Below the pieces are notes generated by a model, which saw only the letters and a list, made by a program, of their open reading frames with translations, was not told the DNA's origin and ran no database searches. The translations under genes were made by a program, and so were the position numbers. 64,000 nt of DNA from Candidatus Pacebacteria bacterium CG2_30_36_39 (GTDB lineage: Bacteria; Patescibacteriota; Microgenomatia; UBA1400; PJMF01): positions 239,538 to 303,537 of the forward strand of contig MNZB01000004.1 in the NCBI GenBank assembly GCA_001873435.1, written 5' to 3'. This document shows, piece by piece, positions 6,838 to 47,610 of this stretch (position 1 is its first letter; every line of letters starts with the position of its first letter).

Positions 6838-6849
6838 CGGTAAAAAATA

Positions 6850-7674: not shown

Positions 7675-7702
7675 GCCTAGACTGTATCAAACCTCAAGCA
7701 AA

Positions 7703-11358: not shown

Positions 11359-11467
11359 TAAAACGCTTTTTGTTAATTTTAGGTTATGTTCCCTAAAAGG
11401 TGAAGAGAAATTGTCATCTGCCAGTAAAAAATTGAGAATTCATTTTTAACGCATCTTTATATACTAA

Positions 11468-14378
<2,911 letters not shown>

Positions 14379-14584
14379 AATTAGCGAAATTTGCATTTTT
14401 TTATAAATTCTCGACGAATTTACTATTAGATGACATATCTCTTCACTTTTTAAAGAACAATTCTAAACAAGAAGCTTCCGCTCCTTGTTGTTCGCCCCGA
14501 GTAGTCAAGATTTCTCTCAAAAACCCATGAACGAATAACAAAAAGCCGATCTTAGTTATTCTTGTTTATGTTAATTTGCTTCTG

Positions 14585-14658
14585 TGGACCCTAAGGGGCT
14601 CGAACCCTTGGCCTCTACATTGCAAATGTAGCGCTCTAGCCAACTGAGCTAAGGGCCC
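14585..14658 (-). tRNA. tRNA-Ala (anticodon UGC), immediately upstream of the 23S rRNA.
   Basis: The reverse complement is GGGCCCTTAGCTCAGTTGGCTAGAGCGCTACATTTGCAATGTAGAGGCCAAGGGTTCGAGCCCCTTAGGGTCCA. It forms a cloverleaf, the anticodon loop is TTTGCAA, and the Ala-identity G3:U70 pair is present. Confidence 0.9.
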
Positions 14659-28026: not shown

Positions 28027-28839
28027 ATTTTTTCTAAACTGCCACTGAAGCTTATCTTGGTCATAATAAATACTTGGATTAATTTTTGTATGATTTGCTA
28101 ATTTTGCAATTTGCCTCCAAGCAATTTTACCAATCAAACTAATTTTTTCAGGAACCCAAGCGTTTATCTCTCGATAATACTTTTGATGGTTATCATTATT
28201 CTTACGATTTGGATTCAAACGATAAGAAGCCAAACAGGCCTCAACACAATAAAGTCTTTCATGCTTTGCAAAAGATTGCCACAACTTGAGATCCATCGAA
28301 TAAGGAACCTCCGCCAAACCTCCACCTGCTTTATTCCAAAGCGAACGACGCCAAAAAGTCCCCTCTTGCATCACAAAACCCATGAATTTTCTTGTGTACC
28401 AGCCTCTTTTAATAAAAGACTGAATATAGAATGGTGGTTGGGCTAAATAAAGTTGATAGCCTTGATCATTAATAGTAGATGGCAAACTAGTTAGCCAACT
28501 CACTTCTTTTAATTGGGCAAAAATACTTCCAACTAGCTGTAAAGCTCCTGGCCTTAAAATATCATCACTATTTAACCAAGCCATAACTTGTCCATTTGTT
28601 CTTGCAAAACCCTTATTAATGGCATGTGACTGCCCACGGTCGGCAACACTTTCCCAATGAGCCAAATATTTTTCATATTTCTTAATAATTTTTTTACTAC
28701 CATCGGTAGAACCACCATCAATAATCACATATTCTAAATTTGGGTAATTTTGATCAAGAATAGAACAAATGGTTTTTTCTAAAAATTCACCTTGATTGTA
28801 AGACGGAGTAACAATGGAAATTTTAGGAAGATTTTTCAT
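27973..28839 (-). CDS. GT2 glycosyltransferase.
   Basis: 'ISIVTPSYNQGEFLEKTICSILDQNYPNLEYVIIDGGSTDGS'. Confidence 0.8.
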   Translation of the reverse strand: MKNLPKISIVTPSYNQGEFLEKTICSILDQNYPNLEYVIIDGGSTDGSKKIIKKYEKYLAHWESVADRGQSHAINKGFARTNGQVMAWLNSDDILRPGALQLVGSIFAQLKEVSWLTSLPSTINDQGYQLYLAQPPFYIQSFIKRGWYTRKFMGFVMQEGTFWRRSLWNKAGGGLAEVPYSMDLKLWQSFAKHERLYCVEACLASYRLNPNRKNNDNHQKYYREINAWVPEKISLIGKIAWRQIAKLANHTKINPSIYYDQDKLQWQFRKNLFEVKTFKLLSDSLPRK

Positions 28840-29729
28840 TAATTTTCAACAACTGGTTCTACAAATGAAATTTTACCAATGACAGAAATATTATCAAAAA
28901 TTAAATATAATTTACTATCAACCAATAGTGGAGATTCTTTACGATAATAGTAATTGCCATTAATTTCTTCTCCAAGAATTTCTAAAGTTAAAGTAGTTTT
29001 AGTTCTTTCTGGATCTACTACAGAATAATAATTACCAGCTTCTACAAAACTTCTTTTACCTGGTTGAGTTTTAATTGAAACAATTTTCACTAATTCCGAT
29101 CCTTTGGCATCAGCAATGTTCATTCCTTCTTTTAATGCCCTAAGAACATGGTTTTCAATTCCTTCGATTAAAGCATTGCTGTTATTTTGAAAGTCTGGAG
29201 ATACTCCTTGAGCGTCGAGTTCCAAAGTAACTAAAAACTTTTTAAATATCTTTTCTTTAGTACCCAAGTCAACTATTTCTCCAGCTAAAAGCAAGTCTCC
29301 AACTTTAAAAGATCGGATGTCATGAATTAACAATGGACTACCATTAAAAACATACTGGCCAGTAACATTATTTTTTAGGGCCCTAAGACGAACAGTTACA
29401 TAAACATCATGATAAATAGATGGACCTGGATACTGATATACATCAACTATTTCAATTAATGATCTTCCCAATCCATCAACTTGTTTTTTCCCAGTTGTCA
29501 CCTGCTCAACATACCAAGATCTTGGTTTATTTTGTCCAAATGAATATTCTGGCCCCTCATAACTAAGTAAGCGAACTGTTAAATCAAGATATTCAACTTT
29601 ACGACTTAAAAAGAAATAAGCAGAACCCATTAAAAAAACCACTAAAAACACCCCCACGAAATCTAGGGCACTGGCATTTCTAAGCTTTTTTAAAAATATA
29701 GATATTAGTTTATGAAGTTGTTTTTTCAT
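28839..29729 (-). CDS. Membrane-anchored hypothetical protein in the glycan locus.
   Basis: 296 aa with one N-terminal TM helix. It is start/stop-coupled to its neighbours. Confidence 0.4.
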   Translation of the reverse strand: MKKQLHKLISIFLKKLRNASALDFVGVFLVVFLMGSAYFFLSRKVEYLDLTVRLLSYEGPEYSFGQNKPRSWYVEQVTTGKKQVDGLGRSLIEIVDVYQYPGPSIYHDVYVTVRLRALKNNVTGQYVFNGSPLLIHDIRSFKVGDLLLAGEIVDLGTKEKIFKKFLVTLELDAQGVSPDFQNNSNALIEGIENHVLRALKEGMNIADAKGSELVKIVSIKTQPGKRSFVEAGNYYSVVDPERTKTTLTLEILGEEINGNYYYRKESPLLVDSKLYLIFDNISVIGKISFVEPVVEN

Positions 29730-31212
29730 AATGTAGAACTAATAGAATAGCCAAAATATTAAAGCTAAAAAGATTTATAAATGGATGAAACAACATCATA
29801 ATAAATCCCGCAGCGATACTTGAGTATATCATGGCTAAAGCAAGCGGACTAAACAAAATTTTCCTAACTTTTTTCAATAATAAACCAAAGAATACCAAAC
29901 AAAAAACTCCAGCTACCAAACCTCTTTCAACTAAAAACAAAATAAAACCATTATGAATTTCCTCTGGAAAATATTTCATTATCCCCTCTGGAAAGAGCTC
30001 AAAAGAAACTGGAATAAACATTCCAGAACCAAAACCCAAAAATGGAGATTTTCCTAAAACACCAAAAGCTTCTTGTGTTTGAGAAATTCTAGTCGTTACC
30101 CCGCCAGTAGGAGAAAAAGAAGAAAAACTATTGAATAAACGATAAGACATTTTGAATATTAATACTGAACTAGCAAATAAAAATATTAATTTTATCCAAG
30201 GGTTTATTTTTTTAACTTCAACATTAATTTTTTTAATAAAGCTAAAAATATTTTTATCTCTAAAATAATAAAAAGAATAAAATCCGCAACTAACAATAAA
30301 AGCCAAGAAAGCTGATCTGCTTAATGAAATAAATGTTACAAAAACAAGAATTCCAATGATTAATAAATAAATAATTTTATTAGCTTCTTTAGAAAATACA
30401 TTCTTTAAATAATTAACAAAAACCAGAGCTCCCAAAGCCATCATGAGCTGTTCGTTGGCCAAACTATTAGCATGTGGGTGCCAACCGAATGGCCTAAATC
30501 CTCCCCCCTGTTCATCTGAGCCAAGCCCAAAAACTGGAATTATCTCAGCTTTTTCTATCATTAAACCTAATGCTGAATTTTTAATCAATTGAGCAAAGAC
30601 AAGAAAATTTTCAAAAGACAAAGTAACTAATAAAATTAAAATTAAAGTAGCTAAAACCTTGTTTCTTTGCACTTTTAAATTAGCAGTAGCTATTAGTAAA
30701 TACATAAACCAAATAAGAATTAAACTTTCTCTAAGAGAAAAAATCGTGCTTAAAAAAGGAAAAGGAGCTATCCAAAATGATGAAAAAATAAAAATAAACG
30801 GCAAAATTAACAATATTTTTTCATAAGTTAATAACTTTATTCTCGATTTAAAATAGTAAAATGGTAGTAATAATCCAGCAGCAAATAAAATTACCAAATG
30901 AGGTGAAAGAATGAACAACAATTGCCTTCCCTCCCAATATTGAATTGAACCTATGTCAGCAGCAGACATAACAGGAAAAGCATAAATTTGCCCAACTGTT
31001 AATGAAAGAAAAATTGGAACACTATAGATAACTGCCCTGGGAAAAGAGTAATAAAAAGCCAAAAAAATAAAGTAAAAAAAACTAACTACAAAATATATTT
31101 TTACTGATGGAATTAAAAATACCATGGCACAAAATAAAAAAGTAGCAATCACTGCCATCTGGTCAGTGGGTTTGATGAGGCTTGCTAGAAATTGTTTAAT
31201 TTTTTGCAACAT
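29710..31212 (-). CDS. Wzy-like polymerase / O-antigen-ligase-family polytopic membrane protein.
   Basis: 500 aa with more than 10 TM helices. Large loop with 'SRSAFLAFIVSCGFYSF'. Confidence 0.55.
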   Translation of the reverse strand: MLQKIKQFLASLIKPTDQMAVIATFLFCAMVFLIPSVKIYFVVSFFYFIFLAFYYSFPRAVIYSVPIFLSLTVGQIYAFPVMSAADIGSIQYWEGRQLLFILSPHLVILFAAGLLLPFYYFKSRIKLLTYEKILLILPFIFIFSSFWIAPFPFLSTIFSLRESLILIWFMYLLIATANLKVQRNKVLATLILILLVTLSFENFLVFAQLIKNSALGLMIEKAEIIPVFGLGSDEQGGGFRPFGWHPHANSLANEQLMMALGALVFVNYLKNVFSKEANKIIYLLIIGILVFVTFISLSRSAFLAFIVSCGFYSFYYFRDKNIFSFIKKINVEVKKINPWIKLIFLFASSVLIFKMSYRLFNSFSSFSPTGGVTTRISQTQEAFGVLGKSPFLGFGSGMFIPVSFELFPEGIMKYFPEEIHNGFILFLVERGLVAGVFCLVFFGLLLKKVRKILFSPLALAMIYSSIAAGFIMMLFHPFINLFSFNILAILLVLHYEKTTS

Positions 31213-32112: not shown

Positions 32113-32790
32113 TTATTTTTGTACCACTCCCAAGCCATTTGAGCCTGGAAATTCAAAAGCTGGATACTTCTTCTTAAGCTCTTGCCAAAACTTATCAACT
32201 CCATAATCCAAATCATTTTCTAAATTAGTTTGCGTATCATGGAATGAAATAAAACCACCAGTTAATAAACTTGGCCAAAAATTATTAAAATCTTCCTTTA
32301 TTCCCTTGTAAGAATGATCACCGTCCAAATAAATATAACCCCACTCTCTTTTGGGAAATTTTTTCTTAAAATCCTGAGAAGTCATCACGTTCATTCTGAT
32401 ATAAGAATCTAGACCATATTTTGCAAAGTGTTTTTTAACATTATTTTCTCGCCAAAAACCCACTCCGCCCCAATGTCTTTTTTTATCAGCTACACTATTT
32501 TGAGAATACCCAGCATCTACAAAATCCACAATTCCTTGTTGATTATCTTTGCAAGCCAAAGCACATATGGCTGGAATAAATCCATACCTACTACCAACAC
32601 AAAGAACTCTCTTTGGCTTGAGTAATCTAATTAAAGAATAATGAATCCAACCATAACCCAGATTTGCTTTATCAATATCTAATTCATGCCAATTATCACC
32701 TTTGGAAAAATGATTGATAAAGTTTTTTATCGATCGACGATTTACTAAACTTTTACTCTGAAATATTTGAGGTATGATATGGGTCAACAT
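32113..32790 (-). CDS. Class I SAM-dependent methyltransferase (TylF/CmcI-like sugar O-methyltransferase candidate).
   Basis: 'VLCVGSRYGFIPAICA' and 'IYLDGDHSYKGIKEDFNNFWPSLLTGGFISFHD'. Confidence 0.45.
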   Translation of the reverse strand: MLTHIIPQIFQSKSLVNRRSIKNFINHFSKGDNWHELDIDKANLGYGWIHYSLIRLLKPKRVLCVGSRYGFIPAICALACKDNQQGIVDFVDAGYSQNSVADKKRHWGGVGFWRENNVKKHFAKYGLDSYIRMNVMTSQDFKKKFPKREWGYIYLDGDHSYKGIKEDFNNFWPSLLTGGFISFHDTQTNLENDLDYGVDKFWQELKKKYPAFEFPGSNGLGVVQK

Positions 32791-32792: not shown

Positions 32793-34019
32793 ATGGTTAA
32801 GTTTATCATCAAATCTCTCCTTAATAAGGCCCATTTTTTAAACTGGAATCAAGATGATTATTTAAAATATTTCCTATCAATTTCAAACAACAAAAATAAA
32901 ATTAAAACTATTCTTGCCAAAGAAAATACCCCTATTTTTATTGGAGATACAAAAATCATTGCTCAAAGACACCATGATTTAAAAAATGCCTTAGAAAAAA
33001 ACTGGCTAAATTATCAAATTAGTTATTCTTTCAAAACAAATTACTCAATTATCGAAAATAATTATTTTAAAAATAATTTTTGGGCTGAAGTTGTCTCAGC
33101 AAAAGAATACTTATTAGCTGAAAAAAATCAATATAAAAATATCATCTTTAATGGACCACTAAAAACAGAATCTTCTTTAAAACAAGCAATTAAAAATAAT
33201 TCAATTATTAATCTTGATCATGAATCAGAAATAACAAAAGTTGCAAAACATAATAACAAGACTAAAACAAATTTTGGTTTGAGACTAAATATTATTACAG
33301 ATCAAACTACTCAAAAAAGTAGATTTGGTTTTTCAATCGAAAATAAACAAGCTGAAAAAGCACTCAAGATAGCCAAGATTAATAATGTCTCTATTTCCGG
33401 ATTACATATTCACTTGGGAACAAATATTCCAAACTGTAAAAAATATCAACAGGCAGCTAAAAAAATTAGTGATTTTATTGTCAAAAACAAACTCACAAAA
33501 CAAATAAGATATATTGATTTTGGTGGTGGTTTTGTAAGTCATGCCAATCCACCAAACGACAGATTAAACTGGAATATTCCAGATATAGAAGAATATATCC
33601 AAGCAATTACAACCACATTGAAACAAGTTTTTCACCGAGAGAAAAAACCAATTTTGTTAGTAGAGCCAGGAAGATATTTGGTTGAAGATGCCATATCTTT
33701 ATTTTCCAGAATTGAAAATAAAAAAATTGAAAATCAAACACAATTAATTACTACTGACACCAGCATTAATATGCTACCCATAACTCATTATCGAAAACAT
33801 ATTGTGCAAATTGCAAAAGAAAACCTAAATATTAAAACTGGTAAAAAAATTAAAACCATCATTTATGGTGCAACCTGCCAAGAAGATGACATTCTATTTG
33901 AGGGTTATCTGCCAAAAATTTCAGAAAGTGATTATCTAATTTGGCACGCAACAGGAGCCTACAATGATTCCATGAACAGTAATTTTATTTTTGATAAACC
34001 AAAAACAGTTTTTATTTAA
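32793..34019 (+). CDS. Fold-III PLP-dependent decarboxylase (Orn/DAP/Arg decarboxylase family 2).
   Basis: 'SYSFKTN' contains the PLP lysine. Also 'GLHIHLGTN', 'YIDFGGGF' and 'LLVEPGRYLVEDA'. Confidence 0.75.
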   Translation: MVKFIIKSLLNKAHFLNWNQDDYLKYFLSISNNKNKIKTILAKENTPIFIGDTKIIAQRHHDLKNALEKNWLNYQISYSFKTNYSIIENNYFKNNFWAEVVSAKEYLLAEKNQYKNIIFNGPLKTESSLKQAIKNNSIINLDHESEITKVAKHNNKTKTNFGLRLNIITDQTTQKSRFGFSIENKQAEKALKIAKINNVSISGLHIHLGTNIPNCKKYQQAAKKISDFIVKNKLTKQIRYIDFGGGFVSHANPPNDRLNWNIPDIEEYIQAITTTLKQVFHREKKPILLVEPGRYLVEDAISLFSRIENKKIENQTQLITTDTSINMLPITHYRKHIVQIAKENLNIKTGKKIKTIIYGATCQEDDILFEGYLPKISESDYLIWHATGAYNDSMNSNFIFDKPKTVFI

Positions 34020-34031: not shown

Positions 34032-34883
34032 ATGTTAAAAAAAGTAATCAACAAATTAAAAAAAGAAACAAAGAATCTTTTAGAGAAAAAGAAACTGCCT
34101 GATTATTTTAAATCAAATCAATTGGCCTGGAATACTGTCGCTCCATTGCATCAAGCTGCCAACCATCAATCTTTATTAAAAGAAGTACAACAACAAAAAT
34201 ATTCTTGTCTTAACCAAAATCAAATAACTGCCTTAAATGAAATTGGAGTTAAAAATAAGAAAGTTTTTCAACCAGCCTGCAATAACGGAATAGAGTTAAT
34301 ATCTATTAAAAAAATGGGTGCCAAAGAATGCGTCGGCTTTGATATCGCGGAAAAATTTATATTGCAAGCTCAAGAACTGGGAAAATCCGCCAATGTTGAT
34401 TGCCAATTTGTACAAAAAAATTTCTTTGATATTTCAGATAAACTAAAAAATCACTTCGACCTAGTGTTTGTTTCAGTCGGCACTCTCCCTTGGATGCTAG
34501 ATCTAAATAAGTTCATAAAAAATTCTAATAAGCTTCTCAAAAAAAGTGGCTACATTGTTATTAATGAGATGAACCCTTTGTTACATTGCCTAAACTATGA
34601 AAGCACCATAGAAAAAATTAAAATTGATAGATCATATTTTGCTGATCAACTTGATGTTAATAATATTTCCTTAGACTATTACAAACACAGCAAATATAAG
34701 GTTCCAACTCAATACTGCAAATACCACACCTTGGCAGAAATAATAAACACTCTAATCAAAAATAAGTTTAAAATAAACTTATATAATGAATATCCAGATG
34801 ATCCTTCATTGAGTTTCCAAAAATTAACTAGATCAAATAAAAAACTACCGATGAGCTACACTATAATTGCCCAAAAAATATAA
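34032..34883 (+). CDS. Class I SAM-dependent methyltransferase.
   Basis: 'VFQPACNNGIELISIKKMGAKECVGFDIAEKF' is SAM-binding motif I. 'LVFVSVGTL' is motif II. Confidence 0.6.
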   Translation: MLKKVINKLKKETKNLLEKKKLPDYFKSNQLAWNTVAPLHQAANHQSLLKEVQQQKYSCLNQNQITALNEIGVKNKKVFQPACNNGIELISIKKMGAKECVGFDIAEKFILQAQELGKSANVDCQFVQKNFFDISDKLKNHFDLVFVSVGTLPWMLDLNKFIKNSNKLLKKSGYIVINEMNPLLHCLNYESTIEKIKIDRSYFADQLDVNNISLDYYKHSKYKVPTQYCKYHTLAEIINTLIKNKFKINLYNEYPDDPSLSFQKLTRSNKKLPMSYTIIAQKI

Positions 34884-36250: not shown

Positions 36251-37372
36251 ATGAAGTTTAATCAAAATATAACTGAAATCACTTTTGACGACGTTCTGCT
36301 TTTGCCTGGAAAATCAGATTTTTTGGTCGATAATGAAAAAAAAGTTGTTAATATCACTGGCAGAGTAACCAAAGATTTATTCCTCGAACTACCAATAATT
36401 TCAGCCCCAATGCCAGGAATCACCACCGCAGCAATGGCAATAGCCCTTGGAAAAGCTGGTGGCATGAGCGTTATCCACCCATTTCAATCAATTAAGAGCC
36501 AAGCTGAGCAAATCAGAATAGTTAAAGAAGCAAATGTAAAAGTTGCTGGCAGTATCTCTTTTAATAAAAACACTACTCTAAAAGATGTTGAAATATTATT
36601 AAAAGCAGGAGCTGATTTAATTTCAATTGAAACTGGCCATGCTCATAACCAACAAACCATAGAGTTTATTAGTAAAATTAAAAATACTTTCGAAAAAATT
36701 AGATTAAGTGCTTCTTTAGTAGTAACTGGAGAAGCCACTGAAGCCCTAATTAAAGCAGGCGCTGACAATATTAGAGTTGGAATTGGTGGTGGCTCACACT
36801 GTACCACCAGACTTGTTACTGGAGTTGGAAGACCACAACTTAGTGCCATTGAAGAATGTTATAAAGTAGCTAAAAAATATGACATCCCAATTATTTCTGA
36901 TACTGGCATTAAGTATTCCGGAGATTTACCAAAAGCTTTTGCTTTTGGAGCCGAAACAGTCATGATTGGTGGACTACTGGCTGGAACAGATGAGTGTCCT
37001 GGAGAAATAGTTGAAAAAGAAGGTAAAAAATATAAATATTCTTGGGGCATGTGCACTGATACTGCTTACAAACACAAAACTCCTTTTGAAAAACTGAAAC
37101 CAGAATACATTTTGCAATTAATTAAAAAAACCATCAAGAAAATTATTGGTAGAGCAGATTCTGATTCATTTAGAGAAAAAGACTTTGAAGAAGGAGTTGA
37201 AGCATTAGTTCCTTATCGTGGACCAGTTACCTCTATACTCAATCAACTAAGGGGCGGTCTCATTAGATCTATGTGGTATTTGGGTACAAAAAATATTAAG
37301 GAAATTGCCAAAAAAACCAGAGTGGTTATGGTTTCAAATAGCACTCCCCTAGAAAATATTCCTCGAATTTAA
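36251..37372 (+). CDS. IMP dehydrogenase/GMP reductase family enzyme without a CBS pair.
   Basis: '[15 protein letters not shown]'. Catalytic loop '[11 protein letters not shown]'. 373 aa. Confidence 0.8.
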
Positions 37373-37377
37373 AACAA

Positions 37378-38034
37378 ATGCTTAAATCAATTCTTAGAAA
37401 AACTAAGAAAATAATCGAAAAAAAACTAATCAAATATATAGTTTGGGATTTTGATGATACTTTGTATGTAAATCTCAAGCTTGGAACCAAACTAAAGAAA
37501 TGTTATCTAGATTATCTTAATGAAAAGAGTAAAGAAAATATTTCTTTTAGAGAATTTAATCTATTAACAAAAAATGGTTTGAGCTGGAGTGGTTTAGTCG
37601 CCAAAAAATTAAAAAAATCTGAAATTAAAATTATCAATGAAGTTGAAAAAAGATTTAATAAAAGCCAATATCTCAAAAAAAACTCATTACTGGTTAAACA
37701 ATTAGAAAAACTAACCAAATATCGTCACGTCATCTTGACTAATTCTCCAGCTTTTGAAGTAGAACAATGTCTTAAAAAAATTGGTTTTAAAAAGAAAAAT
37801 AATCTTGATTTTTTTCCTTTTGAAAAAATTATTGATTGTAATTTAAGTAAAAAATTAAAACCTGATTTAACTCCCTTTAAAAAAGTTACTGACTATACAA
37901 AAATTCATCCAATAAAACATTTAATGGTTGGCAATTCCTATCACAGTGATTTATTACCTGCAAAAAAAGCAGGTTTTCAAGCCATACTAATAGAAGAAAT
38001 TCCAGAATATTTAAAAATAAAACTCAAACAATGA
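37378..38034 (+). CDS. HAD-superfamily phosphatase (nucleotidase candidate).
   Basis: HAD motif I is 'VWDFDDTLY'. The gene sits 6 nt after the IMPDH-family gene. Confidence 0.6.
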   Translation: MLKSILRKTKKIIEKKLIKYIVWDFDDTLYVNLKLGTKLKKCYLDYLNEKSKENISFREFNLLTKNGLSWSGLVAKKLKKSEIKIINEVEKRFNKSQYLKKNSLLVKQLEKLTKYRHVILTNSPAFEVEQCLKKIGFKKKNNLDFFPFEKIIDCNLSKKLKPDLTPFKKVTDYTKIHPIKHLMVGNSYHSDLLPAKKAGFQAILIEEIPEYLKIKLKQ

Positions 38035-38972
38035 AAAAAAAACCTGAAATAATCATTGATACCGACGCTGGTGCAGATGATTTACTAGCAATAACACTTC
38101 TTTTTTCAGCCAATAGTTATTTAATTAAAAAAATTATTACTAGCTATGGCAGTTTTTCTCTAAAAGAATCTACTTCTAGAATTAATAAACTACTAAGCCT
38201 TATTGGAGCAGAAGATATTGCTGTCATAGAGACTGGTGCACAAAAACCCCTAAAAAGAAGCTTTGAACCCTATCACTTAATTCATGGTGATTTGTGGATT
38301 TCTGAAGAGCAAAAACATACAAAATTAAATATAAAAAAACTTGTTGATAATTTATTGCCAAAAACAGATTATTTTTGTCTAGGGCCTTTAACAAATCTAA
38401 GCAAGTTATTGGATGAAAAAGATTTTTTAAAAAAAATTAATAACATCTATATTATGGGTGGGGCAATTTCTTACCCTGGTAATGCTACACCATTAGCTGA
38501 AGCTAACTTTTTCTGGGATCCAGATGCTGTAGAAAAAGTTTTTAAATTGGCTAGTGAAAAAATTAGATTAATTCCCTTGAACATCACTGAACAAATTCAA
38601 CTTAATAATAAGGATATTAAATTCTTCAAAGAACAAAAAATTATTTCTGGATTTTTTAAACCATATTTGCACTATTACTTAAAAATTAAAAAATGGTTTT
38701 TAGATCCAAAAGATTATTTACAAAAAAAATACTCTGGAGCCTCAATTCATGACGTAGTAGCTGTTATTAGTTTGTTTGATAATAGAATTATCAACTTTAA
38801 GCCTATTTTGCTTGCTACTGATTTAATCAAAAAAGAACCAGGATTTATTTATCCAATTTTAAGACAAGAACAGCAATCAAATAAAAAAAATAGTTATAAA
38901 ATAATGACTGCAGTAAATATTAATCAAAAAGAGTTTTGGGAAACCTTTAATAAGGTATTGGTCTCTAGGTAA
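38031..38972 (+). CDS. Ribonucleoside hydrolase (IUNH family).
   Basis: N-terminal 'IIIDTDAGADDLLAI' is the DXDXXXDD Ca-binding motif. It overlaps the HAD gene by 4 nt. Confidence 0.85.
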   Translation: MKKKPEIIIDTDAGADDLLAITLLFSANSYLIKKIITSYGSFSLKESTSRINKLLSLIGAEDIAVIETGAQKPLKRSFEPYHLIHGDLWISEEQKHTKLNIKKLVDNLLPKTDYFCLGPLTNLSKLLDEKDFLKKINNIYIMGGAISYPGNATPLAEANFFWDPDAVEKVFKLASEKIRLIPLNITEQIQLNNKDIKFFKEQKIISGFFKPYLHYYLKIKKWFLDPKDYLQKKYSGASIHDVVAVISLFDNRIINFKPILLATDLIKKEPGFIYPILRQEQQSNKKNSYKIMTAVNINQKEFWETFNKVLVSR

Positions 38973-40203
38973 CAAAGTTTTTAATAAACAAATTTACTTC
39001 AGCTATTAAAGTATTTTTTCCATCAAAATCATGAAGTAATTTATCAACTGTCCTATATCTAGATTTGATTTCTCTCTTATGTTGTTCTTCTGTTTTAGCC
39101 AAAAACTTTAAAATTGAATTAACTAGCCTTTGTTGATTGGCTAAATAATATTTTAAACCTTCATATAAATAACCAACGTCTTCTGCATCTTTCTTGGGAT
39201 GATAAAAAGAAGCAGATAAACAACTATCACACTCAAAACCTTCTTTAAACATTTCATTAACATTTATAGTATGAGAAGTAGTTTGTTCTGGTAAAAGAAA
39301 TATTCTCTTTTTAAAATAAACTGATTCATAAATTCCGTTTTGACCTGGTTGCATAATTAAATAATCGCAATTAGCAATTAAGGACATATGCTCTTTAAAC
39401 GGCAGGGTTGTTATTATTTCTAAATTGTTAAATTTTTCTTGAATGTGACTTAGACTGGGCGTAACTTTTAAAACAATTCTGTAGTTATTTTTTGAATTTA
39501 CCTTATTCAAAACATTGCCAATTAAATTTGCGTAATCAACACTAAACTCATATCCAGTATTTGGATTTAACATTCCTCCCAACTGCACATAGATTAATTT
39601 TTTAGAATCTTTTTGATAAGTTTTGGGAAGTTTTTTTTCCGGAACCAAAGCACCAAATAATTCAATGCTGTGATTATATTTACTTAAAAAATCTACTCTT
39701 TTTTCTACCAATGTTCCAAATCGTTGAATTAGAGATTTGCTTGAGAATAAATGACCAAGAATAAATGGATAGTGTGTGTTTATATCAACTAATTCTGCTA
39801 ATTTTTTACCAAACAAAGCTGGAGTTTCTTTTTTAAGAGCAATAATTTTTCTATACAAATCAATAACTTTTTTTTCATCATATTGCCAAAACCACAAACA
39901 ATTATCGATATATAAACTAGGAATTCCTAGTTGCCATGATTTAATAACCAAAATTGGATCAAAACAAGAAATAACTGCTTCCACAGATCTCTCTGCCAAA
40001 GCTTTTTCCATATTTTCAGCTAAATCTACCCTGTAACCTTGTTGTTTAAAAAAGTTTTTCTGTTTTTCAGTTCCTAAAAATGAAAAATTCTGTTGTTTTT
40101 TGTTATCAACCAAAGATTGAGCCAAAATTGAAGTGGGACCCAAGCCAAAATCATGAGCACTTATTAAAATCTTGTGCTTTGGTTTGAAGAAACGAAAATT
40201 CAT
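38965..40203 (-). CDS. GT-B-fold glycosyltransferase (GT1/MGT/MurG-like).
   Basis: 'ISAHDFGLGPTS', 'VQLGGM', 'ANCDYLIMQPGQNGIYESVYFKKRIFLLP'. Confidence 0.5.
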   Translation of the reverse strand: MNFRFFKPKHKILISAHDFGLGPTSILAQSLVDNKKQQNFSFLGTEKQKNFFKQQGYRVDLAENMEKALAERSVEAVISCFDPILVIKSWQLGIPSLYIDNCLWFWQYDEKKVIDLYRKIIALKKETPALFGKKLAELVDINTHYPFILGHLFSSKSLIQRFGTLVEKRVDFLSKYNHSIELFGALVPEKKLPKTYQKDSKKLIYVQLGGMLNPNTGYEFSVDYANLIGNVLNKVNSKNNYRIVLKVTPSLSHIQEKFNNLEIITTLPFKEHMSLIANCDYLIMQPGQNGIYESVYFKKRIFLLPEQTTSHTINVNEMFKEGFECDSCLSASFYHPKKDAEDVGYLYEGLKYYLANQQRLVNSILKFLAKTEEQHKREIKSRYRTVDKLLHDFDGKNTLIAEVNLFIKNFVT

Positions 40204-41813
40204 TTGTGTTTTTTATTAAATCTTTGCAAATCTTTTATAAAATAATAAAAATAACTAGTAATTTTTTCTGGTTTGGTTAAGATTTGTCTTAAGTAATATT
40301 TGGGGAAAACAAAAAGATCATGAGCTCTCTGTTTTAATGCCAAAGCAGCTCTAAGTTTTTGATTTTGACGATCAGCCTCAATCAAGCTCTCTGTCCAACC
40401 TGGAATACTTTCCCATTTTTGCTGAACATGATTTGAAAGTTTGGCAAATTTTGCCCAAATCTTTTCCGTATCTCTATCTGAATAATCATTATAGAAAAAT
40501 ATTTTTGTCATATCTCTATCACCAGATGATAAATCAAACATTAAAAAGTCATCCCAAACCAGCTTGTCAGTATCAAGTATTCCCATGTCTACAGCCTCTG
40601 TCCAAAGTTTAGTCCCAGGATATGGAGTAGTAACAGAATAACCCAGTGATAAAGCATTTTTTTGGTTTGCAAACCACTTTGCAAGTTGATATGTTTCTTC
40701 AGTTTCTTCTTTGGTTTCAGTTGGTGCAAAAAGCATAAAACTACCAAAAACAAAGATATTATATTTACCAAATAGTTTTGTTGAGTTTTTTACTTGCTCA
40801 TTTGTTAATTGACCATCTTTATATCGCTTTAAAAGTCTTGCGCTACCAAACTCAATACCAATAAAAACTGAAATTGCTCCAAATTCTTTAAGAATCTGCA
40901 CAAACTCCTCATCAATTAGATTGGCTCGAATAAAAAGATGAGAGAAAAACACTTTACCCAGCAGATTTCTTTCTTTTAATTCTCTAATCAAGTCTCTTGC
41001 TCTTGGCTTTGATATGGCAAAGGTATCATCCATGATTTGGAAGGATTGAACACCATAATCCTTATATAAGGCCTCGATTTCATCTACCACTTTTTTAGCA
41101 CTAAAGTATCTCACCCCAGTCCAAACAACTCGGTGGGCACAAAATGCACAATTATAAGGGCAACCTCTGGCTGAATAAATTCTTACAGTTTTAAATACTT
41201 GAGGTTTACCATCGACTAAAAATACTTGATTTTGAAAGATCTTTTCAGCGTGCAGCAAACTCCAATCCAATGCGTCTGCTTTTTTTGTATCAATTGCTAA
41301 ACGAATCTGAGTTTTAACTATTTTTCCCAATTTATTAATAAAAGTTATACCTGGAATTTTCTCTAATTTGGCATCACTAACAGATGTTTTATTTTTCTTA
41401 AAAACACTCACCAACTCTGCCAATGTAGCTTCTCCTTCTCCCAAAACACCAATATCAAATGGCTGTTTTAGTTTTTCTGGCAAAGAAGAGATGTGATAGC
41501 CACCTATTATTGTTGTAACTGGATATTTTTCTTTAATTTTGTTTGCAATATCTGCTGCAAGTGAGTAAAAAGCTGTAATTACAGAAAAACCAATTAGGTT
41601 TGGTTCGAATTTCTCCACAATTTTAACTGGATCCTCAAAATCTAAATCAATAATTCTAATTTGTTTTCTAGATAAAATCTTATTTTTTACCAAATAATCA
41701 GCCAAATACAATAAATTAAGAGGAGCCTCATCTAAATAACTACGATCAACTACATTAATTAAACAAAGTCTGAATTCTTTACTATTAATTTTATTAACTG
41801 GAAATGATTTCAT
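40200..41813 (-). CDS. Cobalamin-binding radical SAM enzyme (class B).
   Basis: N-terminal Rossmann B12-binding region. The 'RGCPYNCAFCAH' CxxxCxxC cluster is present. 537 aa. Confidence 0.8.
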   Translation of the reverse strand: MKSFPVNKINSKEFRLCLINVVDRSYLDEAPLNLLYLADYLVKNKILSRKQIRIIDLDFEDPVKIVEKFEPNLIGFSVITAFYSLAADIANKIKEKYPVTTIIGGYHISSLPEKLKQPFDIGVLGEGEATLAELVSVFKKNKTSVSDAKLEKIPGITFINKLGKIVKTQIRLAIDTKKADALDWSLLHAEKIFQNQVFLVDGKPQVFKTVRIYSARGCPYNCAFCAHRVVWTGVRYFSAKKVVDEIEALYKDYGVQSFQIMDDTFAISKPRARDLIRELKERNLLGKVFFSHLFIRANLIDEEFVQILKEFGAISVFIGIEFGSARLLKRYKDGQLTNEQVKNSTKLFGKYNIFVFGSFMLFAPTETKEETEETYQLAKWFANQKNALSLGYSVTTPYPGTKLWTEAVDMGILDTDKLVWDDFLMFDLSSGDRDMTKIFFYNDYSDRDTEKIWAKFAKLSNHVQQKWESIPGWTESLIEADRQNQKLRAALALKQRAHDLFVFPKYYLRQILTKPEKITSYFYYFIKDLQRFNKKHK

Positions 41814-41835: not shown

Positions 41836-42561
41836 CTAACTAATATTTTTACTTTTTTTATAATTTTTAATCACCTCTTTGCCACCATCACCAAGGATTT
41901 CACCATTCTCCAACCAAATAATTCTTTCACAGGATTTGGAAATAAAATCAATCAGGTGACTTACTATTACTACCACTTTTCCTTTTTTTAAAAAAGAATC
42001 AACTCTTTTAGCGGTTTTAATCTTAAACTCTTCGTCCCCTACAGCAATCATTTCGTCTAAAAGAAAAATATCTGGATCACTATTAATTGCCACAGCAAAA
42101 CCTAATCTTAATTTCATGCCTTTGGAATAAGTAAAAAGAGGTTCATCTATAAACCTACCGATATCAGCAAAACCAATGATCTCATCCATTTTCGCGTTAA
42201 TCTCTTTCTTATTCATTCCCAAAACCATGCCATTAATCATAATATTTTCTCTACCAGATAAATCTGGGTGAAAACCAGCTTCTAGATCAATTACAGAAAC
42301 AACTTTACCAATTACTTTTAGTTCGCCGGATGTTGGTTGTGAAATATCAGAGATAATCTTAAGAATGGTTGTTTTTCCAGATCCATTTGGACCAACTATT
42401 CCCACTTTTTGTCCTTTAAAAATATCTAAATTAATTCTATTTAAAGCAACTAGTTTTTCTGGCCTAGATCTACCGATTATCTGCTCTATAAGAGTAGGAC
42501 GGTGTCCTAGTAGAACATATTCTTTAGTAATGTTTCTTAGTGAGATAACTGGTTTATTCAT
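41836..42561 (-). CDS. ABC transporter ATP-binding protein, polysaccharide/teichoic-acid exporter type (Wzt/TagH-like).
   Basis: Walker A 'GIVGPNGSGKTT', signature 'YSKGMKLRL', Walker B 'IFLLDE'. Confidence 0.85.
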   Translation of the reverse strand: MNKPVISLRNITKEYVLLGHRPTLIEQIIGRSRPEKLVALNRINLDIFKGQKVGIVGPNGSGKTTILKIISDISQPTSGELKVIGKVVSVIDLEAGFHPDLSGRENIMINGMVLGMNKKEINAKMDEIIGFADIGRFIDEPLFTYSKGMKLRLGFAVAINSDPDIFLLDEMIAVGDEEFKIKTAKRVDSFLKKGKVVVIVSHLIDFISKSCERIIWLENGEILGDGGKEVIKNYKKSKNIS

Positions 42562-42563: not shown

Positions 42564-43397
42564 TTAAACATAATCACTAAAATTTTTACTATCTTTATAA
42601 AAGATATAGAAACCAACTATAAAAAATAAGCTCGCCGACAATAAACTAAACATCCAGATTGGTTCTGGAGCTGAATTTGAAATAAAAAATATATTTCTCA
42701 TCATAACCACAACCAAACTCAGTGGATTTAAAAATAATACCCATCTAATAAATTCTGGGATTACGTTTTGAGAATAAATAATTGGAGTTAAATAAAATCC
42801 TAATGGCAATGAGGCTTGCATAATAAAACTAACATCTCTAAATCTGATATTAAGAGATGAAACTAATAGCCCTAAGCCACTGGTAAAAATAACTAAACAA
42901 ATTATGGCTAATAATAGAAGAAGGAGATTAATAAAAATAACATGTTGCCAAACGGCTACGAATAAATACAACAATACAAATGAAATTAATAAGTGAAACA
43001 AATTAGCAGCAACTATTGATAAAACTAATATTTCTCTAGGAAAATTTGCTTTCTGTAAAAGAAATCTTTGATGAACAAAAACTGGAGTGATCTGGTTTAA
43101 GCTTGAAGAAAAGAAATTCCAAATTAATAAACCAACAAATAAAAATAAGAAGTAGTTTTCTGTTTTTACTGGCATGAAAAACTGAAAAACGGCTCCAATA
43201 ACAAACATTTGTAGTATTGGATTAATAATCATCCAGGCAAAACCCAAGCCAGCATTCTTATATCTAGCCTTTATTTCTTTCTCTGTCATCGTCCATAGAA
43301 AATCCAACCAATATTGTTGTTTATCATTTAGTTTAAATAGTTTTGATTCACTAAATACCATATCGAGACTTAATTTTAACAGAATATTGGACAACAA
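42564..43397 (-). CDS. ABC-2-type permease (Wzm/TagG-like).
   Basis: 277 aa with 6 TM helices. It is directly upstream of, and stop-start coupled to, the ATPase. Confidence 0.7.
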   Translation of the reverse strand: MLSNILLKLSLDMVFSESKLFKLNDKQQYWLDFLWTMTEKEIKARYKNAGLGFAWMIINPILQMFVIGAVFQFFMPVKTENYFLFLFVGLLIWNFFSSSLNQITPVFVHQRFLLQKANFPREILVLSIVAANLFHLLISFVLLYLFVAVWQHVIFINLLLLLLAIICLVIFTSGLGLLVSSLNIRFRDVSFIMQASLPLGFYLTPIIYSQNVIPEFIRWVLFLNPLSLVVVMMRNIFFISNSAPEPIWMFSLLSASLFFIVGFYIFYKDSKNFSDYV

Positions 43398-43469: not shown

Positions 43470-44159
43470 ATGATAAATATCATTGATTCAGCCAATATCA
43501 CCAATAATAGCCAAGAAGGCTCTAAAGACAATCCTCCTCAAATTAAGCTCCCTGATGCCACTGGTGTTGCTTCAGCTCAATTTCAAAAAAAGTTTTCTGA
43601 AAAACCACAGAGAAAAGGCTTATCCAAATATTTAATTGCCGGAATTCTCTTGTTACTTTTGGCCATCGGAGGCGGAGCAAGTCTTTATTTAATGAGTATT
43701 AATCAAGACCTTAGACAACAAGCTGATCAAGGAGATTACACTAATCCAACTGATCCACCAGAAGAGCCTACAACTGCCCCGACCACTGCCCCAACTACTG
43801 AACCTACTGGCGAACCAACTACCGAACCTACAACTGAACCCACTGGTGAACCAACTACCGAACCTACGGGCGAACCAACGGATGGGCCAACTGGTGAACC
43901 TACCACTGAACCCACTGGTGAACCTACAACTGAACCAACCACAGATCCTGGAAACGGTGGTGGTGGAAGTAGCAGTTCTTCAAGTTCATCATCAAGTAGT
44001 ACGGCTGTTGTAAATATCAATAATGGAAGCACCACAATAAGAGTTCAACCAACTCTGCCTCCTCAATTGCCACAAACTGGACCAGAAGATTGGCTAAAAT
44101 ATTTACAAGTAGGCTTGGGAGCCTTAGGAGTTGGAGCCTTATTCCTACTCTTCTTATAA
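43470..44159 (+). CDS. Surface protein with an N-terminal TM + INQDLRQQA motif, a TEPTGEP tandem repeat, a poly-Ser run and a C-terminal LPQTG + hydrophobic tail.
   Basis: '...LYLMSINQDLRQQAD', (PTTEPTGE)n, 'GGGGSSSSSSSSSSSS', 'LPQTGPEDWLKYLQVGLGALGVGALFLLFL*'. Confidence 0.65.
   Translation: MINIIDSANITNNSQEGSKDNPPQIKLPDATGVASAQFQKKFSEKPQRKGLSKYLIAGILLLLLAIGGGASLYLMSINQDLRQQADQGDYTNPTDPPEEPTTAPTTAPTTEPTGEPTTEPTTEPTGEPTTEPTGEPTDGPTGEPTTEPTGEPTTEPTTDPGNGGGGSSSSSSSSSSSTAVVNINNGSTTIRVQPTLPPQLPQTGPEDWLKYLQVGLGALGVGALFLLFL
43765..43940 (+). repeat. In-frame imperfect tandem repeat (~24-nt unit) encoding the (P-T-T/G-E-P-T) linker.
   Basis: 'gaacctactggcgaaccaactaccgaacctacaactgaacccactggtgaaccaactaccgaacctacgggcgaacc...' recurs. 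Confidence 0.7.
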
Positions 44160-44180
44160 AACAATTAGAAATAAATTTAA

Positions 44181-44208
44181 AAGCCTAGCCAAAAGCTAGG
44201 CTTTTTTA
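44181..44208 (+). terminator. Intrinsic terminator after the 43470 gene.
   Basis: 9-bp stem AAGCCTAGC-caaaa-GCTAGGCTT followed by TTTTTT. Confidence 0.8.
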
Positions 44209-46374: not shown

Positions 46375-46449
46375 ACAAACTATTCTCTAGAAATTGATTA
46401 AAACCAGGTTATAATAAGAAATCTTATTGAAAGTATTTAATAGGAAAAT

Positions 46450-46522
46450 GCGTGCGTAGCTCAATCGGCAGAGCTCCAAGCTTATACCTTGGTGGTTCTA
46501 GGTTCAAGTCCTAGCGCACGCA
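46450..46522 (+). tRNA. tRNA with anticodon UAU (tRNA-Ile(UAU)-type, decoding AUA).
   Basis: GCGTGCGTAGCTCAATCGGCAGAGCTCCAAGCTTATACCTTGGTGGTTCTAGGTTCAAGTCCTAGCGCACGCA folds as a canonical cloverleaf: acceptor stem 7 bp, D stem 4 bp, anticodon stem CCAAG/CTTGG with loop C-U-UAU-A-C, T stem 5 bp with TTCAAGT. CCA is not encoded. Confidence 0.8.
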
Positions 46523-46563
46523 CCCAAAGTAATTTAAAAGACTATAATTTAAAACGAATAAAT

Positions 46564-47610
46564 ATGAAAAAAATAATTAAAAAACTCTCAAATCCCTTGA
46601 TTAACTTATGGAAAACTAAAAAATGGTTAGTTATAGGTATTGTTATTTTATTACTAATAGCTGGAAATAATTTCTATAAACAAGCAAAAAATAAAACAGT
46701 TTTATCCTTTGTTCATCCTAGTATTCAAACTATTACAAAAACCCTAGACGTATCTGGAATCATTGATGCTAAAGAAAAAGCCAACCTACATTTTGCAGCT
46801 GGTGGAAAATTAATTTATTTGGGAGCAAAAGAAGGCAGTTGGGTAAAAAAGTGGCAAAACATCGCCACTATTGACCAACGAGCTGCTGTTAAAACCCAAG
46901 AAAAATCCCTCAATAACTATGCAAAAGAAAGATTGGATTGGGACCAACGCCAAAGCGACATTGGAGATGGAACCACGGTAGATGAAGAATTAAAAAGAAC
47001 CATTGATAAAGAACAATATGACCTCAATAATTCAGTATTAGATGTCGAGCTTTCTGCCATATCAACTACCAACAACACAATGTCTGCTCCATTTGAAGGC
47101 ATTTTAGTAAGCAGCCCAACAACTGTTACTGGAATTCAACTATCAGCCACAGATTCTTTTTTACTTGTAAATCCAAAAACATTAACCTTTAAAGCTTTAG
47201 TAGATGAATCTGACATTGCCTTAATTGCTCAAAACCAAACAGCAACATTAGAATTTGATGCTTATCCAAATGAAAAGCTACAAAGTTTTGTAAACTATAT
47301 CTCATTCCAAAGCGTTCCATCCTCAAGTGGAACTGCTTTTATTGTTGAATTACCAGTAGAAGCTAGTGATTTAAATAAGTTTCGCTTGGGCATGAACGGT
47401 GACGCCAAAATTGAACTAGAAACAAAACAAAATGTTTTAACTATTCCAGTGGTTGCTGTTAAAGAACGAGATGGTAAAGCATATGTTGAAATTAAAACTG
47501 GTAAAAATACTGCTGAAGAAAAAGAAATCTCAGTTGGCCTAGAAACAGATGACTACATTGAAGTCATTGGTGGCCTAACTGAAAATGATGAAATAGTGGT
47601 ACCAGAATAA
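46564..47610 (+). CDS. Efflux-pump periplasmic adaptor (HlyD/MacA family).
   Basis: The internal ATG in the track frame gives MKKIIKKLSNPL. The upstream part of track ORF 46489 overlaps the tRNA. One TM helix then a beta-barrel/lipoyl adaptor pattern. Confidence 0.75.
   Translation: MKKIIKKLSNPLINLWKTKKWLVIGIVILLLIAGNNFYKQAKNKTVLSFVHPSIQTITKTLDVSGIIDAKEKANLHFAAGGKLIYLGAKEGSWVKKWQNIATIDQRAAVKTQEKSLNNYAKERLDWDQRQSDIGDGTTVDEELKRTIDKEQYDLNNSVLDVELSAISTTNNTMSAPFEGILVSSPTTVTGIQLSATDSFLLVNPKTLTFKALVDESDIALIAQNQTATLEFDAYPNEKLQSFVNYISFQSVPSSSGTAFIVELPVEASDLNKFRLGMNGDAKIELETKQNVLTIPVVAVKERDGKAYVEIKTGKNTAEEKEISVGLETDDYIEVIGGLTENDEIVVPE

Follow-up and report, generated by a model that had tools for sequence, protein, structure and literature searches.

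What might an enzyme of the IMP dehydrogenase/GMP reductase (IMPDH/GMPR) family be doing, together with a phosphatase and a nucleoside hydrolase, among the genes for an envelope polymer? The question is raised by a stretch of 64,000 nucleotides from Candidatus Pacebacteria bacterium CG2_30_36_39 (contig MNZB01000004.1, positions 239,538 to 303,537; hereafter the window, in whose own positions coordinates are given), where three such genes (the trio) lie within an envelope-polymer island spanning ~17.8-43.4 kb. A preliminary description of the sequence had taken the trio for a module that changes the base of a purine nucleoside monophosphate, removes the phosphate and hydrolyses the ribosidic bond in order to salvage carbon. 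Our analysis did leave this order of reactions plausible, given the intact residues of the hydrolase and the nucleotidase-like phosphatase, but not the purpose assigned to it. We tentatively regard the trio as the hydrolase-bearing version of a conserved cassette of the Candidate Phyla Radiation (CPR), the enzymes of which edit a purine nucleotide and release its base for an island with an envelope polymer and an ABC-2 exporter, a reading that we consider quite possible, if somewhat short of an even chance. Since the trio is built around an IMPDH branch that appears to be undescribed, a purine-derived building block is likelier than the scavenging of carbon.

The trio consists of three co-directional open reading frames on the plus strand, and Pfam bears out the families named in the preliminary description (Table 1). 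Their coupling is indeed tight, with a 4-nt overlap (ATGA) between the second and third genes; the gap between the first two is 5 nt (TAA aacaa ATG) and not 6 nt as first given. A terminator scan found no terminator-like site within the trio, and a promoter scan was uninformative, with fewer promoter-like sites than in shuffles. Related loci (L numbers) were gathered via relatives of the IMPDH-like protein and of the hydrolase. Equally tight spacing is seen in the distant loci L001, L017, L023, L093 and L099, which together with the lack of an internal terminator supports co-transcription, as far as spacing can indicate it. At its 3′ end the hydrolase gene overlaps a convergent gene for a GT-B glycosyltransferase by 8 nt, and the proteins encoded by both genes have 100% identical counterparts in a public Candidatus Pacebacteria genome (CG10_big_fil_rev_8_21). 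A 100% identical database entry is also present for the IMPDH-like protein. Matches to three families in which the catalytic motifs are kept, along with the identical database proteins, go far beyond chance.

The IMPDH-like protein shares with GuaB and GuaC the PF00478 (beta/alpha)8 barrel with the catalytic Cys in a GSxCTTR loop, the Thr and Glu of the proton relay, and the Asp and glycines that bind ribose and phosphate. Within the subfamily to which it belongs (the island subfamily), an 11-residue stretch holding Cys184 and Thr186 is invariant, as is Glu314. The protein is CBS-less, as had been stated, the CBS pair of E. coli GuaB (~125 alignment columns) being absent. It differs from IMPDH in the loss of the defining Arg-Tyr dyad, which sits on the mobile flap of that enzyme and activates water for the hydrolysis of the covalent E-XMP* intermediate. 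The dyad reads DRYFQ in its context in E. coli GuaB and ERYGQ in canonical CPR IMPDHs; in the island subfamily the flap region is unalignable and a conserved Arg-Tyr pair is found in none of 17 members. Further changes from GuaB to the island subfamily are MDT to MPG, D(S/T)xHGH to ETxHAxN, GSIC to GSHC, DGG to DTG and YRGMGS to SWGMC(T/S), to which comes a subfamily-specific C-terminal motif, ENxPRI. Where GuaB has the Asp that binds the nicotinamide ribose, the window protein has Glu, as do most members, and others have D, F or S. The 'SD' and 'GG' positions agree with E. coli GuaC and not with GuaB, and the Cys-Thr-Glu triad without an Arg-Tyr dyad, as expected of GuaC, is present.

Scores and phylogeny separate the protein from both GuaB and GuaC. 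Every NCBIfam equivalog model for IMPDH or GMPR stayed far below its cutoff: TIGR01302 (IMPDH) reached 293.6 bits against 481.5, a shortfall that is partly due to the missing CBS pair, and the GMPR models NF003470 and TIGR01305 reached 215.5 against 397 and 198.8 against 492 bits. A PDB search placed the protein nearer to solved IMPDH cores (1vrd, 255 bits) than to GMP reductases. The island subfamily comprises ~120 database clusters of proteins of ~370 aa with 42-100% identity, mostly unnamed or automatically named 'GMP reductase', and is 32-42% identical to GuaB and 28-34% to GuaC of E. coli. It is monophyletic in a neighbour-joining tree, apart from GuaB, GuaC and the canonical CBS-less CPR IMPDHs. 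The latter, from other CPR lineages (L025, L031, L078, L089), keep the dyad and all canonical motifs (MDTV, DSGHGH, GSICTTR, YRGMGS) at 48-51% identity to E. coli GuaB. Asked whether it is GuaB-like or GuaC-like, a check proposed in the preliminary description, the active site thus answers neither: the protein falls into a clade of its own, lacks the dyad and has some GuaC-like positions. Taken together, the lost and altered motifs and the separate clade point to a separate and probably neofunctionalised branch. Covalent chemistry of a Cys at C2 of a nucleoside monophosphate still looks built into the protein, which does not look like an ordinary IMPDH. With the dyad lost and the triad and GuaC-like positions kept, a GMP-reductase-like or new variant of the reaction is likelier than conversion of IMP to XMP.

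Another CBS-less IMPDH-like clade was seen in haloarchaea (L026-L090), with proteins of ~325 aa, the motifs GSHCTTR and SRGMA(T/S) and no Arg-Tyr dyad. The haloarchaeal and other CBS-less homologues were rejected as functional models, as they share none of the conserved neighbours of the window.

The second protein of the trio carries the HAD motifs WDFDDT (DxDxT), LTN(S), K161-P162 and G-(D/N)-S-x3-D191; across 16 orthologues D24, D26, T28, K161, P162, G185 and D191 do not vary, and N122 and D186 hardly do. As a single sequence it matches only uncharacterised structures in the PDB. A profile of its orthologues matches the XMP phosphatase (XMPP) of A. thaliana over its full length (7ef6, E=2.5e-11) and also yeast Sdt1p (E=1.7e-08) and YfnB, with uncharacterised HAD proteins scoring slightly better than XMPP and Sdt1p. 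In NCBIfam the Sdt1-type pyrimidine 5′-nucleotidase model TIGR01993 ranks second (44.2 bits against a cutoff of 142.9). The preliminary description would have been refuted by a sugar phosphatase unrelated to nucleotides; the best characterised full-length matches in the PDB are nucleotidases, so that this objection is not borne out. The plant XMPP is itself an Sdt1-like HAD enzyme that opens purine nucleotide catabolism (PMC8616923).

In the hydrolase the Ca2+/ribose/acid residues are all retained. The Ca2+ motif DTDAGADD, HG, LGPLTN, PGNATPLAEANFxWDP and D241 (the equivalent of Asp242) are invariant or nearly so, and the group-I catalytic His (IHD) is present in the window and in 11 of 12 aligned subfamily members. 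Among solved structures, NRH3 and NRH1 of plants come closest, and the protein stays below the equivalogs that would assign a substrate, RihA, RihB, RihC and UriH (RihC 100 bits against a cutoff of 382, RihA 94.6 against 433). The subfamily is small, with ~15 clusters followed by a sharp drop in score. All close homologues that were examined (window, L001/L011, L002/L012, L023, L091, L092, L093, L099) lie within 2.6 kb of an IMPDH-like gene, and a more distant hydrolase in L098 (31% identity) has just a HAD gene as its partner, among housekeeping genes.

Neighbouring genes were scored by phmmer with the window proteins as queries in 20 independent loci, and 65 loci with more distant CBS-less IMPDH homologues (haloarchaea and others) served as controls. 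A HAD gene was found near the IMPDH-like gene in 18 of the 20 loci, usually abutting or overlapping it. ABC-2 transporter genes were present in 18 loci as well, a Methyltransf_24 gene in 17, nearly always beside the decarboxylase, and a pyridoxal phosphate (PLP) decarboxylase in 16 (nine fold-III FslC-like, seven fold-I HDC/DABA-decarboxylase-like). A 296-aa or DUF4330-like protein followed with 12 loci and a radical SAM enzyme (B12 or SPASM) at most 3.5 kb from the IMPDH-like gene with 10, each out of 19, and the nucleoside hydrolase with 7 of the 20. Genes for HAD, hydrolase, decarboxylase and Methyltransf_24 were each absent from all 65 control loci. Islands of this kind have the IMPDH-like/HAD pair at their core, and the hydrolase recurs in them as an accessory. 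The position of the trio inside a glycan island, which had been called odd, is not odd in this light, since the association is kept in ~20 independent loci and in 0/65 controls, and base composition is uniform over the trio and its flanks (30-44 kb; window GC ~30%). On the grounds of this uniform composition, and because the whole island is syntenic with L001/L011, where the IMPDH-like protein is 75% identical to that of the window, we rejected the idea that the trio was recently inserted or horizontally acquired.

The composition of the cassette varies between loci. At one position the decarboxylase is swapped for one of unrelated fold (window; L002, L007, L014, L020, L091, L092, L099), and this replacement and the frequent rearrangements speak for functional selection and against inherited synteny. 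In L099 a co-directional array with 4-nt overlaps encodes GT2, Methyltransf_24, decarboxylase, IMPDH-like protein, HAD, hydrolase, AP_endonuc_2 and a phosphoribosyltransferase (PRT), and is followed by a gene similar to phosphoribosyl pyrophosphate (PRPP) synthetase and an ABC-2 pair. A sugar-isomerase-like AP_endonuc_2 barrel, a PRT-like and a PRPP-synthetase-like protein are encoded beside the IMPDH-like and HAD genes both there (3101-8293) and in L007 (6998-11254). The PRT of L007, which adjoins the IMPDH-like gene, has its highest scores with HGPRT/XPRT models, an indication of a 6-oxopurine substrate. In L008 and L021 the HAD gene is missing and a small DUF4406 protein is encoded beside the IMPDH-like gene; if DUF4406 is similar to nucleoside deoxyribosyltransferases (NDT), as we presume from its Pfam clan, these loci would have an alternative route to the free base. 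Three loci add a small P-loop kinase, and L093 has the trio without recognisable decarboxylase, Methyltransf_24 or glycan genes. Closely matching loci were also seen in metagenome-assembled genomes labelled as Pseudomonadales/Gammaproteobacteria, Methanoperedens, Woesearchaeota and Pacearchaeota (L006, L011, L015, L016, L019, L021-L023). Errors of binning or naming probably lie behind some of these labels, since L006 ('Methanoperedens') is syntenic with L004 from Shapirobacteria.

The convergent GT-B gene gives an indication of what might become of a released base. Its product has no Pfam family, and its sole NCBIfam match is TIGR04467, CGA_synthase (E=9e-05). CGA synthase couples a free nucleobase to UDP-glucuronic acid. 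TIGR04467 is the top or only family match for all six members of the GT-B family and the sole match for the three closest database homologues, and the homologues in L091 (E=1.5e-24, 86.8 bits, nearly full length) and L092 (E=3.6e-11) score better than the window protein. An AlphaFold (AF2) model (pLDDT 68.6) has two Rossmann-like halves in a GT-B fold, for which Foldseek returned GT1 glycosyltransferases of natural products and small molecules as best matches (E down to 1.9e-10). The family conserves a GG loop and PGxxxxxE; a PDB search with its profile gave only non-significant matches to UDP-glucuronosyltransferases, and a metagenome scan added only two new short loci. Among the loci with an IMPDH-like gene, the GT-B gene occurs in three of seven hydrolase lineages and in none of 13 loci without hydrolase (one-sided Fisher p ~0.03, calculated by hand and uncorrected for phylogeny). 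As the GT-B gene is also present elsewhere without a hydrolase, its link to the hydrolase, with a free nucleobase as putative acceptor, is only suggestive.

The sequence of events that we propose would begin with the IMPDH-like enzyme, which from its conserved residues would bind a 6-oxopurine nucleoside 5′-monophosphate. Attack of Cys184 at C2 would then give an intermediate of the E-XMP* type, which is common to IMPDH and GMP reductase, and the reaction would be completed in a GMP-reductase-like or new manner. The XMPP/Sdt1-like HAD enzyme would strip the 5′-phosphate, and the Ca2+-dependent hydrolase, with its catalytic residues intact, would split the nucleoside into a free purine base and ribose. 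Judging from the context, the edited base or nucleoside and not the ribose would be the useful product, handed to re-glycosylating and tailoring enzymes: in the window these may be the CGA-synthase-like GT-B protein, the methyltransferases and the B12 radical SAM enzyme, in other loci the PRPP-synthetase-like, PRT-like and sugar-isomerase-like proteins. In the end the product would be attached to the polymer that the Wzm/Wzt-type transporter handles, or would leave the cell along with it. A more specific version of this scheme is doubtful as a whole. It would have the edited free purine re-attached to a sugar other than ribose, by a CGA/GGA-synthase-like glycosyltransferase here and by PRPP-synthetase-like and PRT-like enzymes elsewhere; this 'sugar-swap' product would decorate, cap or accompany the exported glycopolymer, an (N-methyl)amino-alkyl group would be contributed by the decarboxylase and methyltransferase, and the IMPDH-like reaction would be new to the family.

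Several points weigh against a base-unloading cassette. About 13 of the 20 loci carry the IMPDH-like and HAD genes and no base-releasing enzyme, so that a free base is no universal product. The model does not account for the decarboxylase and Methyltransf_24, whose genes are the most faithful companions. The similarity of the HAD protein to nucleotidases is far under family cutoffs (TIGR01993, 44 against 143 bits), that of the window GT-B protein to CGA synthase is weak (21.7 bits against 300), and GT-B homologues occur in L095-L097 without IMPDH-like gene or hydrolase. Probably all of the loci belong to related CPR lineages, so that shared ancestry could account for part of the conservation. 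Literature searches on this cassette found nothing, and we know of no precedent for a purine-decorated polymer.

The alternative closest to the preliminary description is a stand-alone catabolic line that leads from IMP or GMP over XMP or IMP to a nucleoside and on to base and ribose for carbon and energy, with an incidental position in the island. The catabolic route of plants does use the same three enzyme families, namely IMPDH, XMPP and NSH1/NSH2 (PMC8616923), the profile of the HAD protein matches XMPP, the best PDB matches of the hydrolase are plant NRHs, and the trio of L093 stands outside the usual context. However, we consider this line unlikely: decarboxylase, Methyltransf_24 and ABC-2 genes accompany the IMPDH-like gene in 16-18 of 20 loci and are not its company in the 65 controls, the hydrolase is missing from 13 of 20 loci, and the IMPDH-like protein is no canonical IMPDH. 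The module is co-operonic with glycosyltransferase, methyltransferase and decarboxylase genes, and some loci spend PRPP within the operon; where PRPP synthetase and PRT genes share the cluster, as in L099 and L007, the harvesting of ribose would be futile. Genes for ribokinase, RuBisCO or R15P isomerase, the last two of which the preliminary description had proposed to look for, were not found in the window. The same PRPP synthetase and PRT genes, with the HGPRT/XPRT-like enzyme of L007, fit with anabolic salvage in a purine-auxotrophic episymbiont, in which the hydrolase would free bases from scavenged nucleosides, a PRT encoded nearby or elsewhere would make nucleoside monophosphates and the IMPDH-like protein would balance the G/I/X pools as a housekeeping substitute for GuaC or GuaB, linked to the island for historical reasons only. 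Hydrolase, PRT and IMPDH/GMPR form the classic salvage set of purine auxotrophs such as trypanosomatids, and NCBI names the homologues 'GMP reductase'. Yet the most constant partner, the nucleotidase-like HAD enzyme, would undo such salvage, many active-site positions are altered, the genes are co-operonic with GT2, Methyltransf_24 and decarboxylase, and the canonical CBS-less IMPDHs of other CPR lineages do not have this neighbourhood. Nor was a purine or PRPP riboswitch found in the window at the gathering threshold or a riboswitch in seven related loci, and a scan of 31.5-44.5 kb at E<=1 gave spurious eukaryotic matches only. Anabolic salvage therefore seems quite improbable to us.

Two further explanations start from the other enzymes of the island. 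With at least three methyltransferases, a radical SAM enzyme and an epimerase/reductase that scores best as GDP-fucose synthase nearby, the trio might clear by-products, either GMP and GDP from GDP-sugar transfer or nucleosides derived from S-adenosylmethionine (methylthioadenosine (MTA), 5′-deoxyadenosine, S-adenosylhomocysteine) with the hydrolase as nucleosidase; a role in processing a nucleotide-sugar by-product had already been raised in the preliminary description. The nucleosides in question carry no 5′-phosphate, however, which leaves an IMPDH/GMPR-type enzyme and a 5′-nucleotidase unexplained, IU-type hydrolases normally need a 5′-OH, cells recycle and do not destroy GDP and GMP, and most loci rich in radical SAM genes have no hydrolase. 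We hold this clearance to be highly improbable. Even less credence is due to the capture of an amine, in which the E-XMP* intermediate would be intercepted by an amine made by the decarboxylase to give an N2-alkyl-guanine nucleotide that is dephosphorylated, methylated and, in some loci, de-ribosylated. Such a reaction would account for the fact that decarboxylase and methyltransferase genes are almost always linked to the IMPDH-like and HAD genes and would fit the lost water-activating dyad and the remodelled flap, but it is purely conjectural and without precedent, and enzymes of the two decarboxylase folds may well act on different substrates. Among routes that were discarded, a ribofuranose-glycan pathway was suggested by the PRPP synthetase, PRT and HAD of L007. 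Kelly et al. reportedly described in 2022 such a route with a PRPP-dependent gPRT and a HAD enzyme; it was dropped, as the transferase of that route has a different fold and the PRT of L007 scores as HGPRT/XPRT-like. Aminopropylation of the MccD/MccE type, by a protein of methyltransferase fold and a fold-III decarboxylase with the hydrolase as MTA nucleosidase, obtained no supporting similarity and was retained only within a rival of low rank. A caffeine-type logic of xanthosine, methylation and N-methylnucleosidase was also considered; the island methyltransferases give generic matches only.

Some known systems resemble the base-unloading cassette in part. Cytosolic purine catabolism of plants has the three families in the same chemical order (IMPDH, XMPP, NSH1/NSH2), but its genes are dispersed housekeeping genes with a canonical IMPDH, whereas the CPR genes form an operon with a dyad-less enzyme in a polymer-export island, and no xanthine-degrading genes lie nearby in the window (PMC8616923). 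Sugar-swap pathways of pyranosyl nucleoside antibiotics (BlsM/MilB with the CGA synthases BlsD/MilC; the purine version MihI) share with the island, as read here, a base change at the level of the nucleoside monophosphate, release of the base and a GT-B protein similar to CGA synthase, with radical SAM, methyltransferase, PLP enzyme and exporter genes alongside. MihI, for example, hydrolyses GMP and joins guanine to UDP-GlcA to give guanylglucuronic acid (PMC11188666). In contrast to these pathways, release of the base would here proceed via HAD and IU-type hydrolase and not via an NDT-like nucleotide hydrolase (with DUF4406 of L008 as a possible exception), the glycosyltransferase lies far below the family cutoff and also occurs without the hydrolase, and the genes belong to a CPR Wzm/Wzt polymer island and not to an actinomycete antibiotic cluster. 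In angustmycin biosynthesis adenine released by AgmA is joined by AgmE to an activated ketose phosphate, the product of AgmD and AgmC, and the HAD phosphatase AgmB takes off the phosphate (PMC8599513). L099 and L007 combine an isomerase/epimerase-like barrel, a PRPP-synthetase-like, a PRT-like and a HAD protein, to which L099 adds the hydrolase, as in angustmycin/psicofuranine pathways, with AgmD, AgmC, AgmE, AgmB and AgmA as the respective counterparts. The differences are an AP_endonuc_2 barrel against an AlsE-like epimerase, an IU-type hydrolase against a LOG N-glycosidase, and the additional IMPDH-like enzyme of the CPR loci; the isomerase, PRPP-synthetase and PRT-like genes are not in the window. 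The dedication of a GMPR-family enzyme with a phosphatase (and a PRT) to a modified nucleoside instead of housekeeping also has a parallel in 7-deazapurine nucleoside pathways, where the GMPR homologues ToyE (with the phosphatase ToyI) and TubD make modified purine nucleosides. A 7-deazapurine pathway itself was rejected, since FolE, QueD and QueE were not seen and the only QueC-like match, in L014, is weak and partial.

The three enzyme families and their chemical order are already known. What appears to be undescribed, with nothing found in targeted literature searches, is the dyad-less IMPDH clade, its near-obligate pairing with HAD, decarboxylase, methyltransferase and polymer exporter in CPR genomes, and the recurrence of accessories of the nucleobase re-glycosylation type. 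If the cassette does act as proposed, it would represent a new functional branch in one of the best-studied families, strongly conserved despite the loss of a catalytic dyad, and would link purine-nucleotide chemistry to envelope polymer biosynthesis in the CPR, organisms that live as episymbionts by means of surfaces of which the chemistry is hardly known. It would also provide a concrete set of genes (IMPDH-like, HAD, decarboxylase, Methyltransf_24 and ABC-2, with or without hydrolase, GT-B or PRT genes) and would advise against labelling such genes 'GMP reductase' or assigning them to purine salvage when the metabolism of CPR genomes is reconstructed. Even if the function were ordinary salvage, a widespread automatic annotation would be corrected.

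Table 1. Positions of the trio and of neighbouring island genes in the window, with the matches on which the assignments are based.
Feature	Position	Strand	Match
CBS-less IMPDH/GMPR-family protein of the distinct island subfamily, 373 aa	36251-37372	+	PF00478 E=2.9e-99, residues 10-369
HAD-IA phosphatase, probable 5′-nucleotidase, 218 aa	37378-38034	+	HAD_2 E=4.4e-10, Hydrolase E=5.6e-06
Group-I (His-type) Ca2+-dependent nucleoside N-ribohydrolase, 313 aa	38031-38972	+	IU_nuc_hydro E=5.6e-48, residues 7-304
296-aa protein and Wzy_C polymerase/ligase-like protein	28839-31212	-	Wzy_C E=7.6e-13
Methyltransf_24 methyltransferase, divergent from decarboxylase	32113-32790	-	PF13578 E=1.6e-14
PLP decarboxylase, fold III, FslC-like	32793-34019	+	Orn_Arg_deC_N / Orn_DAP_Arg_deC
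Methyltransf_11/25 methyltransferase	34032-34883	+	Pfam
Polytopic membrane protein, 429 aa	34867-36156	+	Pfam/NCBIfam: no match
GT-B glycosyltransferase, distantly CGA-synthase-related	38965-40203	-	TIGR04467
B12-binding radical SAM enzyme, BchE/HpnJ/P-methylase-like	40200-41813	-	B12-binding + Radical_SAM
ABC-2 polymer exporter, ATPase	41836-42561	-	ABC_tran
ABC-2 polymer exporter, permease	42564-43397	-	ABC2_membrane

Listed in sequence, the island encodes two Wzy_C proteins, the epimerase/reductase, a NodU-like carbamoyltransferase, GDSL proteins, a WecG/TagA transferase and GT4 and GT2 glycosyltransferases, followed by Methyltransf_24, PLP decarboxylase, Methyltransf_11, the membrane protein, the trio, GT-B, the B12 radical SAM enzyme and ABC-2. 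The exporter is predicted to be of the polysaccharide/teichoic-acid type (Wzm/Wzt, TagGH): its ATPase scored 188.9 bits against Wzt/RfbE, 168-171 against TagH and 115 against DrrA, all under the equivalog cutoffs, and its permease matches Wzm/KpsM, with galactan Wzt/Wzm and TagH ahead of the drug exporter DrrA. The best PDB match of the decarboxylase is the N-citrylornithine decarboxylase 7kh2 (E=2.1e-48), and PDB searches with Methyltransf_24, Methyltransf_11 and the 296-aa protein gave nothing useful. The Methyltransf_11/25 gene co-occurs with the GT-B gene in L011, L091, L092 and L096, and an orthologue of the 429-aa membrane protein was found only in the closest relatives, L001/L011. The protein encoded beside Wzy_C at the equivalent position carries a DUF4330 annotation in two loci, weak in L007 and faint in L008.

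A B12 radical SAM enzyme is here encoded in a reduced CPR genome, and orthologues follow the HAD or GT-B gene in L006, L015, L024 and L097, in the last of which the orthologue adjoins the GT-B gene. The two Wzy_C proteins (17831-20422 and 29710-31212) are O-antigen ligase/polymerase-like, and one of them is unusually long (863 aa). PF03214 'RGP' proteins (UDP-arabinopyranose-mutase-like, GT75) are encoded in L091 (16518-17513), L092 (13624-14601) and L014 (~6 kb from the IMPDH-like gene), which hints at furanose sugars in the polymers of these three related islands. The right-hand limit of the transcription units of the island is marked by a perfect bidirectional terminator hairpin at 44179-44205 (11-12 bp stem), immediately past the gene for a PT-repeat protein (43470-44159).

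Outside the island, the window contains 23S (11464-14382) and 5S (11241-11357) rRNA genes and tRNA-Ala(TGC) (14584-14658), all on the minus strand, and no 16S gene. As protein-coding frames lie upstream of tRNA-Ala (14847-15482, and an S1 protein at 15833-17089), the 16S gene appears to be unlinked from 23S-5S. A tRNA-Ile gene (anticodon TAT, 46449-46526, plus strand) overlaps the called TTG start (46489) of a HlyD-like frame (46489-47610), the true start of which probably lies downstream of 46489. Near the right end the window encodes a TrwB/HerA-like coupling ATPase (52655-54991) and an ATP-dependent DNA ligase of the archaeal/eukaryotic type (61808-63595), both on the minus strand.

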